From the IMG/VR virus record IMGVR_UViG_3300017978_000178, positions 1-39,581 of that record: a stretch of 39,581 nt of DNA. One strand, written 5' to 3'. This DNA is from a virus. Taxonomy: Duplodnaviria > Caudoviricetes. Under the pieces are notes generated by a model that was not told the origin of the DNA, searched no databases, and saw only the letters and a program-made list of their open reading frames with translations. The position numbers and the translations under genes are program-made. Shown piece by piece: positions 13,686-34,710 of the stretch (within the stretch, counting starts at the first letter, position 1; each line of letters begins with the position of its first letter).

Positions 13686-14101
13686 TTCCAATCGCTCAGT
13701 TGTTAAATCTAGGTACACACTTAGTAGACAAACTCATCCCTGATCCAGAAGCTAAAGCTCGGGCACAACTTGAGCTAACGAAGCTGGCGCAGGATGGTGA
13801 ACTGGCTAAGATTGCCAATGAGACTGACCTCTACAAGACGGAGCAAAACAACCTCACAGAGCGCATGAGGGCTGATATGGCCTCTGACTCTTGGTTGTCT
13901 AAGAATATCCGTCCTATGACCCTTGTAGCTATCTTCGTGGGCTACTTCCTCTTTGCCTTGATGTCAGCGTTTGATTATGATGCTAACGAGGTTTACGTCA
14001 CCCTGCTTGGTCAGTGGGGTATGTTGGTTATGTCCTTCTACTTCGGTGGTCGCACCTTGGAGAAGATCATGGACATGAAAGCTGGTAAGAAAGGAGAATA
14101 A
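13682..14101 (+). CDS. Holin (3TM GTA-holin-like)
   Basis: DKLIPDP..KA.AQLEL, SDSWLSKNIRP, FYFGGRTLEK; next to the endolysin. Confidence 0.8.
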   Translation: MIPIAQLLNLGTHLVDKLIPDPEAKARAQLELTKLAQDGELAKIANETDLYKTEQNNLTERMRADMASDSWLSKNIRPMTLVAIFVGYFLFALMSAFDYDANEVYVTLLGQWGMLVMSFYFGGRTLEKIMDMKAGKKGE

Positions 14102-14102
14102 T

Positions 14103-14159
14103 ATGCCATGTGGTTCTGGTTACGGTAAAAAAGGCAAGAAGAAGCCTCCTAAGCGCTAA
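14103..14159 (+). CDS. 18-aa basic micropeptide MPCGSGYGKKGKKKPPKR
   Basis: Strong RBS AAGGAG upstream; ends just before the terminator. Confidence 0.5.
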   Translation: MPCGSGYGKKGKKKPPKR

Positions 14160-14170
14160 GTTAAGCTAAT

Positions 14171-14230
14171 AAAAAAAGCCCCTGCAAGGTAGACTCCATA
14201 AGGTCTACTTTGACAGGGGCTTTCTTGTTT
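14171..14230. terminator. Bidirectional terminator between the converging arms
   Basis: AAAAAAAGCCCCTG...CAGGGGCTTT long hairpin with an inner GTAGAC/GTCTAC stem and A/T runs on both sides. Confidence 0.9.
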
Positions 14231-14236
14231 CTAGGG

Positions 14237-14392
14237 TTAGTACATCATGGACAGAGTACCCAGACCTAGATGCAGGTTGATGCAGTTAGCAACGATACCT
14301 TCATCCTTGTCGTCCTCCTCGTTCATGACCAATACTTCCTCGTATTCCAGTCCGAAGACCAGACCTGTTTTCCAACTAAAATCAAAGATCAT
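14237..14392 (-). CDS. Hypothetical 51 aa protein
   Basis: MIFDFSWKTGLVFGLEYEE..., ATGA-coupled to the upstream ORF. Confidence 0.6.
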   Translation of the reverse strand: MIFDFSWKTGLVFGLEYEEVLVMNEEDDKDEGIVANCINLHLGLGTLSMMY

Positions 14393-14568
14393 TCTTGTTC
14401 CTTGTTTTCATAATTAACATAGGCTATAAGGGTTGGCTCCACTTTGATATAGGATATGTCTTTTTCTACCATAAGCTCTTCAATCAAGCGAGAGAGGCTC
14501 TGGTCTTCAACTATGAAAACTAGAGTCTCAAGATACAACTGCCTGTGTCTTTCTACTTTCCACATCAT
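14389..14568 (-). CDS. Hypothetical 59 aa protein
   Basis: RBS AAGGAG; MMWKVERHRQLYLETLVF... Confidence 0.55.
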   Translation of the reverse strand: MMWKVERHRQLYLETLVFIVEDQSLSRLIEELMVEKDISYIKVEPTLIAYVNYENKEQE

Positions 14569-14577
14569 ATCTACTCC

Positions 14578-16497
14578 TTAGCGAACTGGGCAAGCACCAG
14601 AGGCACACTCAGCATCGTCCAGACCAATATCCAGCGAACTGATGCTGGTAATCAATCGGGTCTTAGCCACCAACTCGTCATACTGCTCTTTCGTAATCTC
14701 TTCCAGAGGAGCTTGTTTGAACCCGTGCTCATTGTGCAACAGGAACGACAAACTCTTATGGTTGGTCTTGTAGTTCTTCTTCAAGTATTTCTTGATCTCA
14801 GGCAACTCCTCCATACGATAGTACACGGTACAACTCACACTGTTATCACTCCACTCAGACTGCAACCACTTGATTGTCTCCAACTGGTCAATAGCAGTCA
14901 TGTCTTTAGCCAACACCGCATTGTCAGGGTGTCGGAAGGGGAAAGACACAACCATTGTTGAACGGTCTTCTGAACCATCAAAGTTCTGCTGGTACTCCAC
15001 AGGGTAGCCATGATCTCGACAAGTCTGCACCAACGGGTGATTGGCACTGATACGAATACGACGAATCATGTATCGGGCATAGGCTGGATGGCAACCCGGA
15101 GTCACACCGGGGAGCAACGACAGCGTACCAGAAGGCTTGACCGTGGTAATCTTAATCGACTCAGGGAAACCATTTTTAGCAGAATACTCCTTATCAAACT
15201 CACGCAGTTGCGTATACACATCATTCAACCAAGACTTCTGTTCCTCAGACGACTGCAAGACACCAGTGATACCGATACCCATACGCATATTCTTGTGGAC
15301 AATCTCCTCAGTGACCTTCAAGTGGAAGGGCAAAGCCAGAGAGTGTTTATTCACTCGATACAGCAGTTTAGCAACATCAGCCAGTTCTTCCTTACTCGTC
15401 ACATTGGGCAAGTAAATCTCAGCCAAGCAGCAGGTCTCACCATCAGCCAAGCTCTGCTCCGCACAAGGGTTGTAGCCTTGAACTTCAGGATCAGGATACT
15501 CTGTCTCACCTAGGCGTCCAACTTTACGGGAGAGCTTGAGGTTAATAAGTCCATAAGGTTCTCCTTTGCCTTCGTATCCATCCCAGAAGAAGTCATGAAG
15601 GTCTCCAATGTCGTGGCAAACAACGCTGTTGTTGGACATTGCGCGCCACGATGGAATATTTCCCAAGTCCCATCGTTTAGCAAGCAGATATTCCACATCG
15701 TCAGCATCTCCAATAGCAATCTGAGCACTACGGCGCACGTTACCAGCAACGACAACAGCACCAATGATGTTCATGATGTCCAAGCAATCAACTGGACGGA
15801 GCTTCTTACCTGCTCGTTTCTCCAGAATCTCACCAATCTTACCGATACCCCAAACCAAGTCCTCTGGGCCACTAGCTGTGCCGCCAAAGCCTTTGATAGG
15901 AGCGCCTTTAGAACGAATCAACTGTGTTGAGTAGCTGAACGTCTGCTTACCACTCTTATGGGCTAGAAAGGCCGCTTTGAGCGTTTTGCCGAGTAGTGCC
16001 ACCCATCCCTCACGAGAGTCAGGAACAATAAAGTCAGCATCAGCAGAATCAATACGGGTAGGCCGAACAAAATTCTCATTGACAGGAGGAAGTTTCTCCA
16101 CGTTCTGCTTTTGAATATTGTAACCAACACCAGACCCCAACATCAACAAATCCATTGCCCAAGTAAACGGCTCCACAGGAGAGTTCACCACCTTAAATGC
16201 ACAGTTCTGGAGGCTTGCACCACCCAACTTACCCACTGTGTCTGTACCCAACTGCCACAGGAATCGACCTGCAACAGTACCCTTCAACTCCAGCATATAA
16301 CGCTTCAGACGCTGCTCTTCCTCAGCAGTGAAGTTACATTTCAACTGGTTACGAGCACCATTGACAACACGGTTAATGGTGTCTTCAAACTCTTCTGTTG
16401 GGCTGTCAGCATCATTCTCATTCAAGCGGCGGGAATAGGTGCGCTTGTAGGTCAGGTAACCAACGGAGCTAAACGGGGTAACAATTTCATTCGTCAT
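14578..16497 (-). CDS. nrdJ: Class II (adenosylcobalamin-dependent) monomeric ribonucleotide reductase
   Basis: TYKRTYSR, GRFLW..G, LQNCAF, NVRRSA, NPCAEQ, TTVKPSGT and C-terminal CASGACPVR redox pair; no beta subunit gene seen. Confidence 0.93.
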   Translation of the reverse strand: MTNEIVTPFSSVGYLTYKRTYSRRLNENDADSPTEEFEDTINRVVNGARNQLKCNFTAEEEQRLKRYMLELKGTVAGRFLWQLGTDTVGKLGGASLQNCAFKVVNSPVEPFTWAMDLLMLGSGVGYNIQKQNVEKLPPVNENFVRPTRIDSADADFIVPDSREGWVALLGKTLKAAFLAHKSGKQTFSYSTQLIRSKGAPIKGFGGTASGPEDLVWGIGKIGEILEKRAGKKLRPVDCLDIMNIIGAVVVAGNVRRSAQIAIGDADDVEYLLAKRWDLGNIPSWRAMSNNSVVCHDIGDLHDFFWDGYEGKGEPYGLINLKLSRKVGRLGETEYPDPEVQGYNPCAEQSLADGETCCLAEIYLPNVTSKEELADVAKLLYRVNKHSLALPFHLKVTEEIVHKNMRMGIGITGVLQSSEEQKSWLNDVYTQLREFDKEYSAKNGFPESIKITTVKPSGTLSLLPGVTPGCHPAYARYMIRRIRISANHPLVQTCRDHGYPVEYQQNFDGSEDRSTMVVSFPFRHPDNAVLAKDMTAIDQLETIKWLQSEWSDNSVSCTVYYRMEELPEIKKYLKKNYKTNHKSLSFLLHNEHGFKQAPLEEITKEQYDELVAKTRLITSISSLDIGLDDAECASGACPVR

Positions 16498-28569: not shown

Positions 28570-28584
28570 TGGCACGGTTCTTGC
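28570..28584 (+). promoter_or_regulatory. Consensus sigma54 -24/-12 box, antisense to the early arm
   Basis: TGGCACG-GTTC-TTGC is an exact match to TGGCACG-N4-TTGC; intergenic. Confidence 0.65.
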
Positions 28585-28589
28585 TCTTT

Positions 28590-31377: not shown

Positions 31378-31430
31378 GATGATTGATCCTTGGTTAGTGT
31401 GTTGTGATGAGGTGATTGTATAGGGTTTGT

Positions 31431-31667
31431 TTAGAGCAGGTCAACGATGGTTGTCCCATCATCATCTTGTGATGTCTCAATGATGCGCTCATGCTTGAGG
31501 GTTTGAATGGCTTGAATAGCCTTGGAACCCCCGAAGCCTTGAGCAGTAGCCCAAGACAGAACAGACTTGAGAGCGCATGGGTTAGAGGCTTCGATGTGTG
31601 TCTTGATTGCGTCGTAGTGTGTGAGCATGATCGTTGAAGTATCCCAGTTTGCTTTGATGTGTGTCAT
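31431..31667 (-). CDS. First early gene, hypothetical (possible winged-helix-like)
   Basis: RBS AAGGA; directly downstream of the sigma54 promoter. Confidence 0.6.
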   Translation of the reverse strand: MTHIKANWDTSTIMLTHYDAIKTHIEASNPCALKSVLSWATAQGFGGSKAIQAIQTLKHERIIETSQDDDGTTIVDLL

Positions 31668-31717
31668 GTTGTTTTATCCTTGGTTGAACACAGCGACAAC
31701 TGCTGCGCCTTACGCAT

Positions 31718-31733
31718 TGCACGATCCATGCCA
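31718..31733 (-). promoter_or_regulatory. Sigma54 -24/-12 promoter for the early arm
   Basis: Minus strand TGGCATG-GATC-GTGCA; GG-N10-GC spacing correct; about 50 nt upstream of the first gene. Confidence 0.7.
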
Positions 31734-31762
31734 GTTTATATACTTTTTTGTGATTCGTTATA

Positions 31763-31775
31763 TATCAACGACTTA
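31763..31775 (+). promoter_or_regulatory. IHF binding site
   Basis: TATCAACGACTTA matches WATCAANNNNTTR exactly, with a 5' T tract. Confidence 0.7.
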
Positions 31776-31781
31776 GGTTAG

Positions 31782-31816
31782 TTATCCACAGGCTAGACTT
31801 ATCCACACTATCCACA
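31782..31816 (+). promoter_or_regulatory. Three DnaA boxes
   Basis: TTATCCACA (31782), TTATCCACA (31799), CTATCCACA (31808). Confidence 0.75.
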
Positions 31817-31819
31817 GGA

Positions 31820-31889
31820 TGCACCAACACAGTGAAATTATGCACTATATAAGTGGATGATTGCAAGTAAAATGCACCATTATGGTGAT
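31820..31889. promoter_or_regulatory. Three NtrC-type enhancer boxes
   Basis: TGCACCAACACAGTGAA (31820), TGCACTATATAAGTGGA (31841), TGCACCATTATGGTGAT (31873) versus TGCACCA-N3-TGGTGCA; spacings 21 and 32 bp. Confidence 0.7.
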
Positions 31890-32031
31890 TGTGTGTTGTC
31901 GGTTTAGTATGCTGTTTAGTATGCTTTATAGGTTACGTTATAGGTTCCCGCATCGTCCCTCGCTTGTCTCTTTCCTACAACACTATGTTATGTTAAGTAG
32001 GGACAGATTAGACTCAAGCCTAGATCGAAGT

Positions 32032-32050
32032 GCTAATGAGAATCGTTATC
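32032..32050. promoter_or_regulatory. Fur box
   Basis: GCTAATGAGAATCGTTATC matches GATAATGATAATCATTATC at 16/19 positions, followed by further GTTAyC hexamers. Confidence 0.65.
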
Positions 32051-32320
32051 GTTACCGTTTGAGGGCCGGGGGGCCGGTTGAGTATGATGAAATGTTTGTG
32101 TAGCCACCGTAGTTCATAAAAGGTAAAAACTAAGAAAAATAACAATAAAAAATAGACACTCAAGAAACAGGTAAGTCTTTGTCACTAAAGGAAAAAGGTA
32201 AGGAATAGACAAGTAGAATCCGTGCACCCTGAAAGGGGAATGTTTAAGGTACTTTAAAGACTATACTCCGTTGTAAAAAAACGACAATATCAACTATTTT
32301 ACATAAAAGTGAAAAAAGAC

Positions 32321-32349
32321 TTGACTTTTGTCTCGAAATGTGGTATAAT
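32321..32349 (+). promoter_or_regulatory. Strong sigma70 promoter for the structural arm
   Basis: TTGACT-17 nt-TATAAT with extended TG and an A-rich UP element. Confidence 0.85.
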
Positions 32350-32379
32350 ATATACCTATGTAAGACAGAACAAAGTAGA

Positions 32380-32518
32380 GTACTTTAAAGTCACTAGGAC
32401 ATTTCATAGATGTTAAATACTCTTTATAAGTAATATACTATTAATAGTTATACTACTATAAGTAATAAACTTATAATGTATCTTTAACTTATATGATACA
32501 TTAAAGTACTTTACTTAA
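32380..32518. repeat. AT-rich tract B sharing motifs with tract A
   Basis: AACTTATAATGTAT (32468), ATTAATAGTTA, TACATTAAAGT, TATAAGTAA. Confidence 0.6.
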
Positions 32519-32585
32519 ACAGAATCTGAGCACAGATTGTCTAAAACTGATACCCTGTCTAAGGGATAATATCTTTAAGGAATGA

Positions 32586-33050
32586 ATGATGCTGATGGTT
32601 GTCGAAAAGAAGTGTTATTGCTGTGGTGAGGTTAAAACACTGCCTGAGTTTGGAAAAAATAAAAGTAAAAAACAAGGTGTGTCTGATGAATGTCGTGCCT
32701 GTCGTGCTGTTCAAAGAAAAGAATACAAGCAGAAAAATAAACTTAGCGTATTAAAACACAAAAGAACTTATAGACAAAAATACAGGGCTGAGGAAACAGC
32801 AAGGAAAAAAGAAAGAGAAGTCAGAAAGCTAAAAGCTACTCCTCTTTGGGCAGACAGAAAAGAAATTAGTCTTGTGTATGAAGCAGCCGCTGCTTTTAAA
32901 CTGTACACCGGACTGGAATACCATGTAGACCATATCGTACCTTTGAAAGGGAAAACGGTTTGTGGTCTTCACTGTGAGGCGAATCTTCAGGTTTTACCTG
33001 CAAGTGTAAACCTTAGTAAAAGCAACAAATATTGGCCTGATATGCCATAA
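32586..33050 (+). CDS. Free-standing HNH endonuclease (same family as 274..768)
   Basis: YHVDHIVPLKGKTVCGLHCEANLQ...NLSKSNK. Confidence 0.9.
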   Translation: MMLMVVEKKCYCCGEVKTLPEFGKNKSKKQGVSDECRACRAVQRKEYKQKNKLSVLKHKRTYRQKYRAEETARKKEREVRKLKATPLWADRKEISLVYEAAAAFKLYTGLEYHVDHIVPLKGKTVCGLHCEANLQVLPASVNLSKSNKYWPDMP

Positions 33051-33082: not shown

Positions 33083-33448
33083 ATGACAAAGCCCTCTGGT
33101 AATCCCCGAGGTCGTCCTAAAAAGACGGCTATTACTGAAATAAAAGAAAATAGGTCTGTAGGTCGCCCAAAGGGAGACAAAGCCATTATGGACGAGTATA
33201 AGCTGCGTATGCTTAACTCACCTAAGTCCTCAAAGGTTTTAGAAAAAGTATATGAAGTAGCTCTAACAGACGGACATCCGGGGCAGTTAGCTGCTATGAA
33301 ACTAGTCATGGATAGGATTGTACCGTCCAGTATGTTCGATGCTACAAAGGCATCTGGCTCTGCTCCAACCATCTCCATTAATATCAGTTCCCTTGGAACA
33401 CCAAAGGTTGAGCGAATGGAAGATGTTATTGACGTGGGGGAATCATAA
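33083..33448 (+). CDS. Terminase small subunit (putative)
   Basis: PRGRPKK / GRPKG N-terminus, AMKLVMDRI; directly precedes terL. Confidence 0.7.
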   Translation: MTKPSGNPRGRPKKTAITEIKENRSVGRPKGDKAIMDEYKLRMLNSPKSSKVLEKVYEVALTDGHPGQLAAMKLVMDRIVPSSMFDATKASGSAPTISINISSLGTPKVERMEDVIDVGES

Positions 33449-34710
33449 TGGAACTTAATTGGCAGTTGTTGCCGTGGCAAGCGACCGTATGGCAATCAAA
33501 AAAACGCTTTAAGGTGTTGGCTTGTGGTCGAAGAACAGGTAAATCTAACCTAGCTATCAAACTTACCCTTGCGAAGGCTTTAGAGGCTCCAGAAGGCTCT
33601 GCGGTGGTGTATGTAGCCCCTACCCTTGGACAGGCCCGCCAAATCGCTTGGGATGCCCTTTTAGACCAAGGAAGGGACATTATCAAGTCTGCCCATGTCA
33701 ACCAGTTGGATATTACTCTGGTTACAGGGCGTAAGATTCACATCCGTTCTGCTGAGAACCCTGATACCCTTCGAGGTCTTAAACTGTATTTTGCAGTGTT
33801 AGATGAAGCAGCGTTTATCAAGGATGACTCTACATGGACTAAGATTATTCGTCCTGCCTTGTCTGACTTGGAGGGTGAGGCTTTGTTTGTGTCTTCCCCT
33901 GATGGTCGTAACTGGTTCTATGATCTGTACAACTCAGCGTTAAAAGGTGAGGATGATGATTGGGTAGCGTTTCACTTCACTACGAAGGATAACCCTACCA
34001 TCTCAGAGAAAGAGATTGAAGCTGCTAAGAAGACTCTGAGCACATTGGTGTTTAAGCAGGAATTTGAAGCTTCATTTGCTGTATCTGGACAAGAGATATT
34101 TAAAGAAGAGTGGATCAAGACAGGCCCGGAGCCTCAGTTTGGTTCTTACTACGTAGCTGTGGACTTAGCAGGTTTTGAGGATGTCGCTAAGAACGCCAGT
34201 GCTTCCAAGAAGCGTCTTGACGAGACAGCCATTGCTGTGGTCAAGGTGTCGGATGAAGATGGTGTCTGGTGGGTGAAAGAGATTCAGCATGGTAGGTGGG
34301 ACATCAAGGAGACAGCCTCTAAGATTCTCTCTGTCATGAAAGAATATCAGCCTACAGCTATCGGCATTGAGAGGGGGAGCTTGAAGAACGCTGTTCTACC
34401 GTTCCTCTCTGACTTGATGCGTAAATATAACACGTTCTCGCACATCCATGACCTGACTCACGGTAACAAGAAGAAGACAGACCGTATCGTCTGGGCTTTA
34501 CAAGGTCGCTTTGAGCATGGTCGCATTGTCCTCAACGAGGATGGTGACTTTGAGGATTTCAAGGAACAATTACTTCTTTTCCCAACAGCCGGGGTTCACG
34601 ATGACTTACCGGATGCTCTTTCCTACATTGACCAACTGTGTGTAACAAACTACCAGTCGGATTATGAGGAAGAGGAATGGGAAGTCTTAGACAATCTTTC
34701 AGGATACTAA
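33448..34710 (+). CDS. terL: Terminase large subunit
   Basis: GRRTGKS, YVAPT, LRGL, VLDEAAF, QEFEASF, VDLAG, HDDLPDAL. Confidence 0.96.
   Translation: MELNWQLLPWQATVWQSKKRFKVLACGRRTGKSNLAIKLTLAKALEAPEGSAVVYVAPTLGQARQIAWDALLDQGRDIIKSAHVNQLDITLVTGRKIHIRSAENPDTLRGLKLYFAVLDEAAFIKDDSTWTKIIRPALSDLEGEALFVSSPDGRNWFYDLYNSALKGEDDDWVAFHFTTKDNPTISEKEIEAAKKTLSTLVFKQEFEASFAVSGQEIFKEEWIKTGPEPQFGSYYVAVDLAGFEDVAKNASASKKRLDETAIAVVKVSDEDGVWWVKEIQHGRWDIKETASKILSVMKEYQPTAIGIERGSLKNAVLPFLSDLMRKYNTFSHIHDLTHGNKKKTDRIVWALQGRFEHGRIVLNEDGDFEDFKEQLLLFPTAGVHDDLPDALSYIDQLCVTNYQSDYEEEEWEVLDNLSGY

Follow-up and report, generated by a model that had tools for sequence, protein, structure and literature searches.

A putative sigma54/NtrC promoter and candidate docking sites for host proteins at the predicted first-entering end of a podovirus genome

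Why should a podovirus without an RNA polymerase of its own carry, in a few hundred base pairs of non-coding DNA, sites for several unrelated regulators of its host? The question is raised by the window (by which we mean the whole 39,581-nt stretch of viral DNA that was analysed), whose early and replication arm runs leftward from 31667 (primase-helicase, family A polymerase, ThyX, MazG and B12-dependent RNR) and whose late arm runs rightward from 32586 (HNH, terS, terL, portal and capsid). The site region lies between these diverging arms of a podovirus-type genome, and no RNA polymerase was found among the 55 ORFs scanned. The window makes up an entire virus record, rated 100% complete by CheckV, in which no repeat was found at the ends. 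A strong sigma70-type promoter (11/12; 32321–32349, + strand) heads the late arm (HNH gene, terS, terL), and a rightward match of at least 10/12 was found in 98/117 loci.

Searches with the terminase, primase, capsid, endolysin and tail fibre returned no close cultured relative or host: identity to cultured phages was 28–30% for the terminase among the matches listed, and at most 35% for the capsid among its matches. DNA from 31400 to 32600 gave only 43-nt chance matches to cultured phages, a search of genome contigs gave a single distant match, and Rfam returned nothing of note (one chance match, E 0.82, outside the site region). The sequencing runs that contained parts of the site region were labelled aquatic or freshwater.

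Five genes of endonuclease VII/HNH type are dispersed over the 39.6-kb genome (274–768, 13119–13685, 21527–21925, 23609–24058 and 32586–33050), and a very A/T-rich, imperfect 45-bp inverted repeat (32404–32496) separates the late promoter from the HNH gene. An A/T-rich element at 28588–28690 matches 32410–32487 in inverted orientation (78%), and a second, perfect sigma54 box (28570–28584, + strand) is directed into it. Many relatives have an A/T-rich stretch, a candidate origin, a few kb inside the early end; the adjoining sigma54 box is not conserved.

The site region and the predicted genome end

The preliminary description of this DNA had counted nine near-consensus sites for five host proteins, and all nine are present. 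A sigma54 −24/−12 box (31719–31733, − strand; GG at 31732–31731, GC at 31720–31719, with the correct GG-N10-GC spacing) faces the early arm. Between it and the NtrC boxes lies an IHF core match without mismatches, with an A/T tract 5′ of the core (31763–31775, + strand). Three DnaA boxes follow (31782–31816, + strand), of which those at 31782–31790 and 31799–31807 are exact and that at 31808–31816 has one mismatch, and then three NtrC-type palindromes at 31820, 31841 and 31873 (31820–31889), each at most two mismatches from TGCACY-N5-RGTGCA. The ninth site, a Fur box (16/19; 32032–32050, + strand), lies within the predicted terminal repeat.

The total of nine compares with a mean of 0.20 and a maximum of 3 in 3000 dinucleotide shuffles of 31717–32080, and outside this region three sites is the most that any 363-bp segment of the genome contains. 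Both of the exact matches to TTATCCACA in the 39.6 kb fall in this region, and the one place within five mismatches of the Fur box is 32032–32050. Such window-only figures are post hoc, because the region was picked for holding these sites, and it is the relatives that provide an independent test. For IHF, Fur and DnaA, sites were called with the general consensus strings. Those for sigma54 and NtrC came from the available text of PMC8743547.

The region had also been placed at the probable end of the genome, and four contig starts on one base agree with this. A conserved motif, P (31942–31962, + strand; defined from a motif logo and contig starts), is likely where the terminase cuts to make the right end, at 31946–31947. 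It lies 81–257 bp left of a conserved G-rich run in 89 loci; a pattern scan that proved too narrow picked it up in 12. Fourteen contigs begin in the 330 nt to the left of the G-run, and in three of them, each from a different sample (L051, L059 and L150), the first base is exactly the fifth of P; L226 is among those that start elsewhere. A contig of run X5 starts at 31947, the base of the window that matches this fifth base. On the strength of these starts, the right end of the linear genome is predicted near 31947.

The G-run itself (32063–32075, + strand) is a landmark near the predicted left end, which by analogy with ICBM1, where a C-run starts 20 nt inside the genome end, would fall at about 32095–32103. 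A G+C-rich 5′ end, reported as conserved in cobavirus repeats in the accessible part of PMC6775973, and one contig (L246) that stops 40 nt past the first G of the G-run point the same way. The predicted direct terminal repeat would then span about 150 bp (31947–32100), its outer boundary being uncertain within about 32095–32103. Contig ends at 32096 in two runs were considered as the left terminus and rejected, being explained by a variant at 32066 and the 31-mer graph; depth steps in the contig data were left unused for placing the termini.

In T7 the early end of the genome enters the cell first, and by analogy with T7 and the cobaviruses the early end of the present genome would do so too. 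The sites sit in the predicted repeat and just inside this early end: among the 89 loci with a clear P motif, all 16 Fur boxes were on the repeat side, and all 66 sigma54 boxes fell inside the early end. A distant clade (L113–L125) has divergent sigma54 boxes, or 4–6 DnaA boxes in a run, less than 100 bp from the G-run, and these are probably inside the terminal repeat.

Sites in the corresponding region of relatives

Relatives were gathered by terminase (80 loci), terS (45), first ORF (1) and the pattern of the G-run with its right flank (92), the putative terminase small subunit and the terminase large subunit of the window (33083–34710, + strand) serving as baits; the first-ORF locus was the only one chosen from the early side, and none was chosen by its sites. 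With the window counted, 179 entries allowed the G-run to be anchored; 700 nt of left flank were available in 146, and dereplication reduced these to 122. In each of these 122 loci the 400 bp to the left of the G-run were scanned, with 30 dinucleotide shuffles for comparison; since the loci are related, the counts are not independent events.

Enrichment held across the 122 dereplicated loci as it did in the window. Exact DnaA boxes numbered 146 against 0.6 in the shuffles, sigma54 boxes 75 against 0.9, IHF sites 22 against 3.1 and Fur boxes 17 against 0.3, and NtrC boxes 129 against 8.1, a count inflated by 16 matches that take one half-site from motif P. Further regulators were represented in the same zone by NrdR (30 against 2.8), LexA (26 against 8.0), SdhR (17 against 0.4, using the motif given in the available portion of PMC4494728) and parS (5 against 0.0). 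For CRP, FNR, PhoB, CtrA and ArgR, pattern counts in this zone of the 122 loci did not exceed the range seen in the shuffles. The presence of SdhR boxes and of LexA boxes of the form CTGT-N8-ACAG, without enrichment of CRP or CtrA, may point to a betaproteobacterial host, given the ranges of these motifs.

Repeated motifs without a name were also seen left of the G-run (in the L024–L062 clade, L077, L080, L095 and L099), comprising the palindromes TGTTG-N8-CAACA, AGGG-W4-CCCT and GATAG-N7-CTATC, TetR-like palindromes, and TGTAAG repeats spaced by 10 bp. These are probably sites of further host regulators and are treated as candidates. The three named palindromes and two TetR-like strings were enriched and have been left out of the counts, the patterns having been derived from the relatives themselves, which makes the test circular.

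The preliminary description had offered a decoy array as one option, in which the boxes would titrate host regulators as the genome amplifies, DnaA to halt host initiation and Fur to derepress iron uptake; with the sites of the relatives included, titration of NrdR and SdhR would do likewise for dNTP and TCA genes. The sites are indeed near-consensus, several of their targets are repressors whose loss could help the phage, and a DnaA box within one mismatch occurs in 71/122 loci. A sponge would be indifferent to position, yet the late (right) side of the G-run, as non-coding as the early side (ORF cover 8% versus 14%), held no sigma54, no exact DnaA and no Fur sites in 118 loci; exact IHF matches were equally common there (26, against 22 left of the G-run). 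Moreover, the window offers between one and three sites per regulator, and the targets differ among close relatives. The one-sided placement weakens the decoy idea, and we allow it a slim chance.

The DnaA boxes bring to mind an oriC-like origin, at which they, with IHF and the A/T tract, would open the DNA for a first round of replication. The window does have three same-strand DnaA boxes adjoining an IHF site and an A/T tract, but 51/122 loci have no DnaA box within one mismatch and the positions of the boxes vary, so that conserved DnaA boxes phased with IHF and an unwinding element, as in an oriC/datA-like module, were not found. The phage also encodes its own primase-helicase and polymerase, and the A/T-rich element of many relatives stands apart from the sites. 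An origin is accordingly the least probable of the roles considered here, and a very improbable one.

A predicted promoter and interchangeable sites

Three of the five kinds of site fit together in a manner that had been missed in the preliminary description: sigma54, IHF and NtrC sites are laid out as one ordinary enhancer-type promoter facing the first gene. The sigma54 box of the window lies 51 nt before the first ATG (31667), with a predicted start site at about 31707, and the NtrC boxes are 101, 122 and 154 bp upstream of it. Directly behind the box is the first early ORF (31431–31667, − strand), of 78 aa, which has no Pfam or PHROG match. A winged-helix fold is predicted for it, comparison with the ESM Atlas giving MarR/Fur-type winged helices (TM 0.65–0.70 by query, model pLDDT 0.70); its homologues are 62–67 aa long and begin at residue 14 of the window ORF. 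An internal sigma70-type promoter (10/12; 31415–31444, − strand) at the end of the first ORF faces the later early genes.

Among the relatives, a leftward sigma54 box was found in 50/122 loci, 43 of these 50 having NtrC boxes 78–200 bp upstream. It ended 27–59 nt before the first ATG in 29 of the 100 loci with a usable first ORF (22 were skipped), and it is kept while the gene downstream varies widely. An exact TTGACA promoter filled the sigma54 slot in 10/67 loci without a box and in 0/33 with one, a mutual exclusion that is weak (Fisher p 0.13 with looser −35 matches in 100 loci, p 0.029 in 101 loci); neither kind of promoter was seen in 55/100 loci. A sigma70 match of at least 10/12 within the first ORF plus 400 nt was present in just 2/50 leftward-box loci, of which the window is one, and for this reason the early arm appears to be led by the sigma54 box in most such loci.

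The offsets of the NtrC boxes cluster near 88, 100, 112, 122, 133, 143 and 154 bp, that is, in steps of about 11 bp, although the evidence for helical phasing depends on the period assumed (distinct offsets, p 0.001 at 11 bp and 0.23 at 10.5 bp, among related loci) and one DnaA-rich lineage is out of step. An exact IHF site between box and enhancer is confined to the window (1/43 loci), and matches with one mismatch are no commoner in that interval of the 43 loci than in shuffles (8 versus 7.0). A TGTAATACT-type motif recurs at the place of the window's IHF site, one 8-mer being found between the sigma54 box and the first NtrC box in 24/43 loci. In 12 loci (L099, L109, L112, L132, L152, L153, L175, L178, L186, L207, L208 and L210) a rightward sigma54 box begins 23 bp past the start of the last NtrC box, such that divergent boxes surround one enhancer.

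Judged by its geometry, the promoter part is well supported. The sigma54, IHF and NtrC boxes likely form a predicted nitrogen-limitation promoter of enhancer type for the first gene, assuming a host with RpoN and NtrC, and in about one relative in three the early arm appears to be headed by an NtrC/sigma54 promoter of this kind. A more passive view would be that the sigma54 box merely parks inactive polymerase, as part of a protein coat on the DNA, and that none of the nine sites regulates transcription. It can point to 10 loci with rightward sigma54 boxes but no NtrC, to 29 in which NtrC boxes have no leftward sigma54 box, and to phage VpV262 (L270), which has six sigma54 boxes on both strands (at 173–346, close to the inner edge of the annotated 138-bp left repeat and outside it, where 0.008 would be expected). 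Most sigma54 binding in E. coli is, moreover, by transcriptionally inactive holoenzyme, according to the accessible text of PMC4591121. A passive coat does not explain why the leftward box stands at set distances from the first ATG and from the NtrC boxes and takes the slot used by sigma70 in other loci, nor why most leftward-box loci have no strong sigma70 promoter nearby, and we consider it unlikely. The six boxes of VpV262 are absent from the annotation of its record.

The remaining sites behave differently. Site combinations among the relatives numbered 44, and the interchangeable set includes, with the DnaA and Fur boxes, sites for LexA, NrdR, SdhR and parS. Among relatives with enough flank, the one closest to the window by terminase (L003, 90%) has DnaA, SdhR, LexA and NrdR sites and a rightward sigma54 box, and neither NtrC nor Fur; a deep contig of run X3 matches the window on both flanks with the panel between them replaced. 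A FastTree built from 115 TerS rows requires 15 changes of the promoter cassette, 10 of these forced by strong branches, compared with 32 changes when the labels were shuffled, and two sets of identical TerS differ in their promoter cassette; few columns enter the tree, and on the linear genome terS and the cassette are at opposite ends. What is conserved in the region is the type of structure rather than one set panel.

Nor, with rare exceptions, do these sites coincide with the early promoter. Within −20 to +60 of it were found 0/14 Fur, 0/6 SdhR, 0/9 NrdR and 0/3 parS boxes, with 1/17 for LexA and 5/139 for DnaA, and the distance from Fur box to early promoter has a median of 282 bp over the loci and is about 300 bp in the window. 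This bears on the claim that the region is a single device, one version of which is a sensor that would read nitrogen, iron and replication state together at the promoter and time the start of the lytic programme. The DnaA boxes of the window, lying as they do between sigma54 and NtrC boxes, could alter looping, and this order is common to L093, L147, L181, L199 and L205; control of lytic phage genes by a host regulator, CtrA, has been shown (PMC9437464, in the portion available). All five kinds of site occur together in 1/122 loci, however, namely the window; its Fur box sits far off in the predicted repeat, repressor boxes almost never overlap the early promoter, and the regulators differ among loci with identical TerS. 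These observations do not support the single-device claim, and an integrated sensor seems improbable.

Because they interchange, miss the promoter and lie on one side, the DnaA and Fur boxes are likely docking sites for host proteins on entering DNA, and of the options raised in the preliminary description a landing pad is the best reading for them. Two points tell against a holding role: a ratchet would need no sequence-specific sites, and RecBCD strips bound proteins from DNA. That docked proteins would hold the entering end is the reading that best fits the one-sided placement.

A role at the concatemer junction or in packaging fits the asymmetry too, the proteins positioning or gating the cut by terminase and the way the repeat is copied, much as IHF acts at lambda cosB. 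In the 89 loci with a clear P motif, 19 sites (16 NtrC and 3 LexA) end at the predicted cut, and the DnaA boxes on the repeat side share one orientation (42 versus 1). The sequence of P could by itself produce the overlap, though, and the shared orientation could have been inherited from a common ancestor; the site of the window that comes nearest to the cut ends 57 bp away from it, and no conserved promoter leads from the late side through the repeat (18/117, scattered). We give a junction device a small chance.

Docking combined with the promoter makes up the two-part reading that we prefer, and to which we assign an even chance: a sigma54/NtrC promoter joined to a host-protein docking zone at the first-entering end, with binding, transcription, nitrogen dependence and the holding role all read from sequence. 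On this proposal, the stretch would be the first-entering end of a podovirus without an RNA polymerase. DnaA and Fur boxes would load host proteins onto the incoming end and retain it in the cell at a stage when phage proteins have yet to be made, while sigma54-RNA polymerase would park at the −24/−12 box. Phosphorylated NtrC on the upstream boxes would loop to the parked polymerase, which would then fire into the first gene, encoding the predicted winged-helix protein, and in the window the sigma70 promoter would afterwards serve the later early genes. A broader and more speculative extension, which we think rather unlikely, would see the swappable, gene-free end cassette as a host-state entry gate throughout a widespread family of aquatic lytic podoviruses, in which the end is clamped, sigma54 polymerase parks, NtrC-triggered transcription reels in the early arm, and swaps to sigma70 divide hosts by nutrient state.

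This locus offers a mapped and comparative handle on two broader matters, namely the means by which phages lacking an RNA polymerase retain and draw in their DNA, and the possible timing of lytic onset by the nutritional state of the host. VpV262, a cultured phage carrying a sigma54 array at the corresponding place, makes the docking idea accessible.

Comparison with known promoters and phages

The predicted promoter resembles glnAp2 and glnHp2, NtrC-activated sigma54 promoters of enteric bacteria in which a −24/−12 box is served by several NtrC boxes 100–170 bp upstream with IHF between, an IHF site between enhancer and promoter being typical of the glnHp2 subtype. The 32-bp spacing of the second and third NtrC boxes of the window is also that of glnAp2. 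Unlike those promoters, the predicted one is on a lytic phage, heads a variable early gene rather than nitrogen-assimilation genes, and has DnaA boxes between promoter and enhancer.

In layout, the genome is that of cobaviruses and VpV262 (Zobellviridae), which have diverging arms, no RNA polymerase, a B12-dependent (class II) RNR, ThyX and MazG, as described in the accessible part of PMC6775973, and a short repeat with a G+C-rich end, here a predicted repeat with one boundary placed from four contig starts and the other by analogy. The term cobavirus-like, used in the preliminary description, stands for this shared layout and fails for sequence: identity to ICBM1 is 27% over 147 aa for the terminase and 23% over 298 aa for the capsid, so that the close terminase and capsid kinship of the cobaviruses ICBM1 and SIO1 is lacking, as is CtrA enrichment, and the phage belongs to a different, uncultured lineage. 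A bidirectional terminator where the arms converge is a trait of Cobavirinae, and a simple scan of 13900–14700 gave one terminator-like site, inside the holin gene. The site array is not general in podoviruses without an RNA polymerase, since the scanned ends of other cultured phages gave one LexA match in LUZ24, one NtrC-like match each in RIO-1 and ICBM1, and none in phiEco32.

The injection-stop region of T5 is alike in having boxes for host proteins in non-coding, first-entering DNA, where they are proposed in silico as an anchor (10.1101/866236, in part). There, eight DnaA boxes in a fixed arrangement of paired inverted repeats lie about 9–10 kb into a 10-kb repeat with the pre-early A1/A2 genes, and injection proceeds in two steps. 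The window differs from T5 in having three DnaA boxes less than about 400 bp from the end, a repeat of about 150 bp, and interchangeable sites. No long inverted repeat surrounds its DnaA boxes among the 25 longest listed, and, as to A1/A2, the early ORFs scanned matched no named PHROG or Pfam family. Fur, NtrC, LexA and sigma do not occur as whole words in the main text of the T5 paper (10.1101/866236).

Dense host-regulator sites in intergenic DNA, read as sensing of host state, are also known from the CtrA clusters of lytic alphaproteobacterial phages that defer lysis (PMC9437464, as far as its available text goes). Those clusters serve one regulator, with binding and regulation established by experiment, whereas the present sites serve many regulators, lie mostly off promoters, are tied to a terminus and are known from their sequences. 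Pseudomonas phage YuA is a virulent phage with a host sigma54-like promoter; unlike the window, its account names neither an NtrC enhancer nor a terminal array in the text available (10.1101/2023.10.13.562163). A literature search, the coverage of which mostly excluded subscription papers, found neither NtrC-enhancer promoters nor mixed panels of host sites at phage termini.
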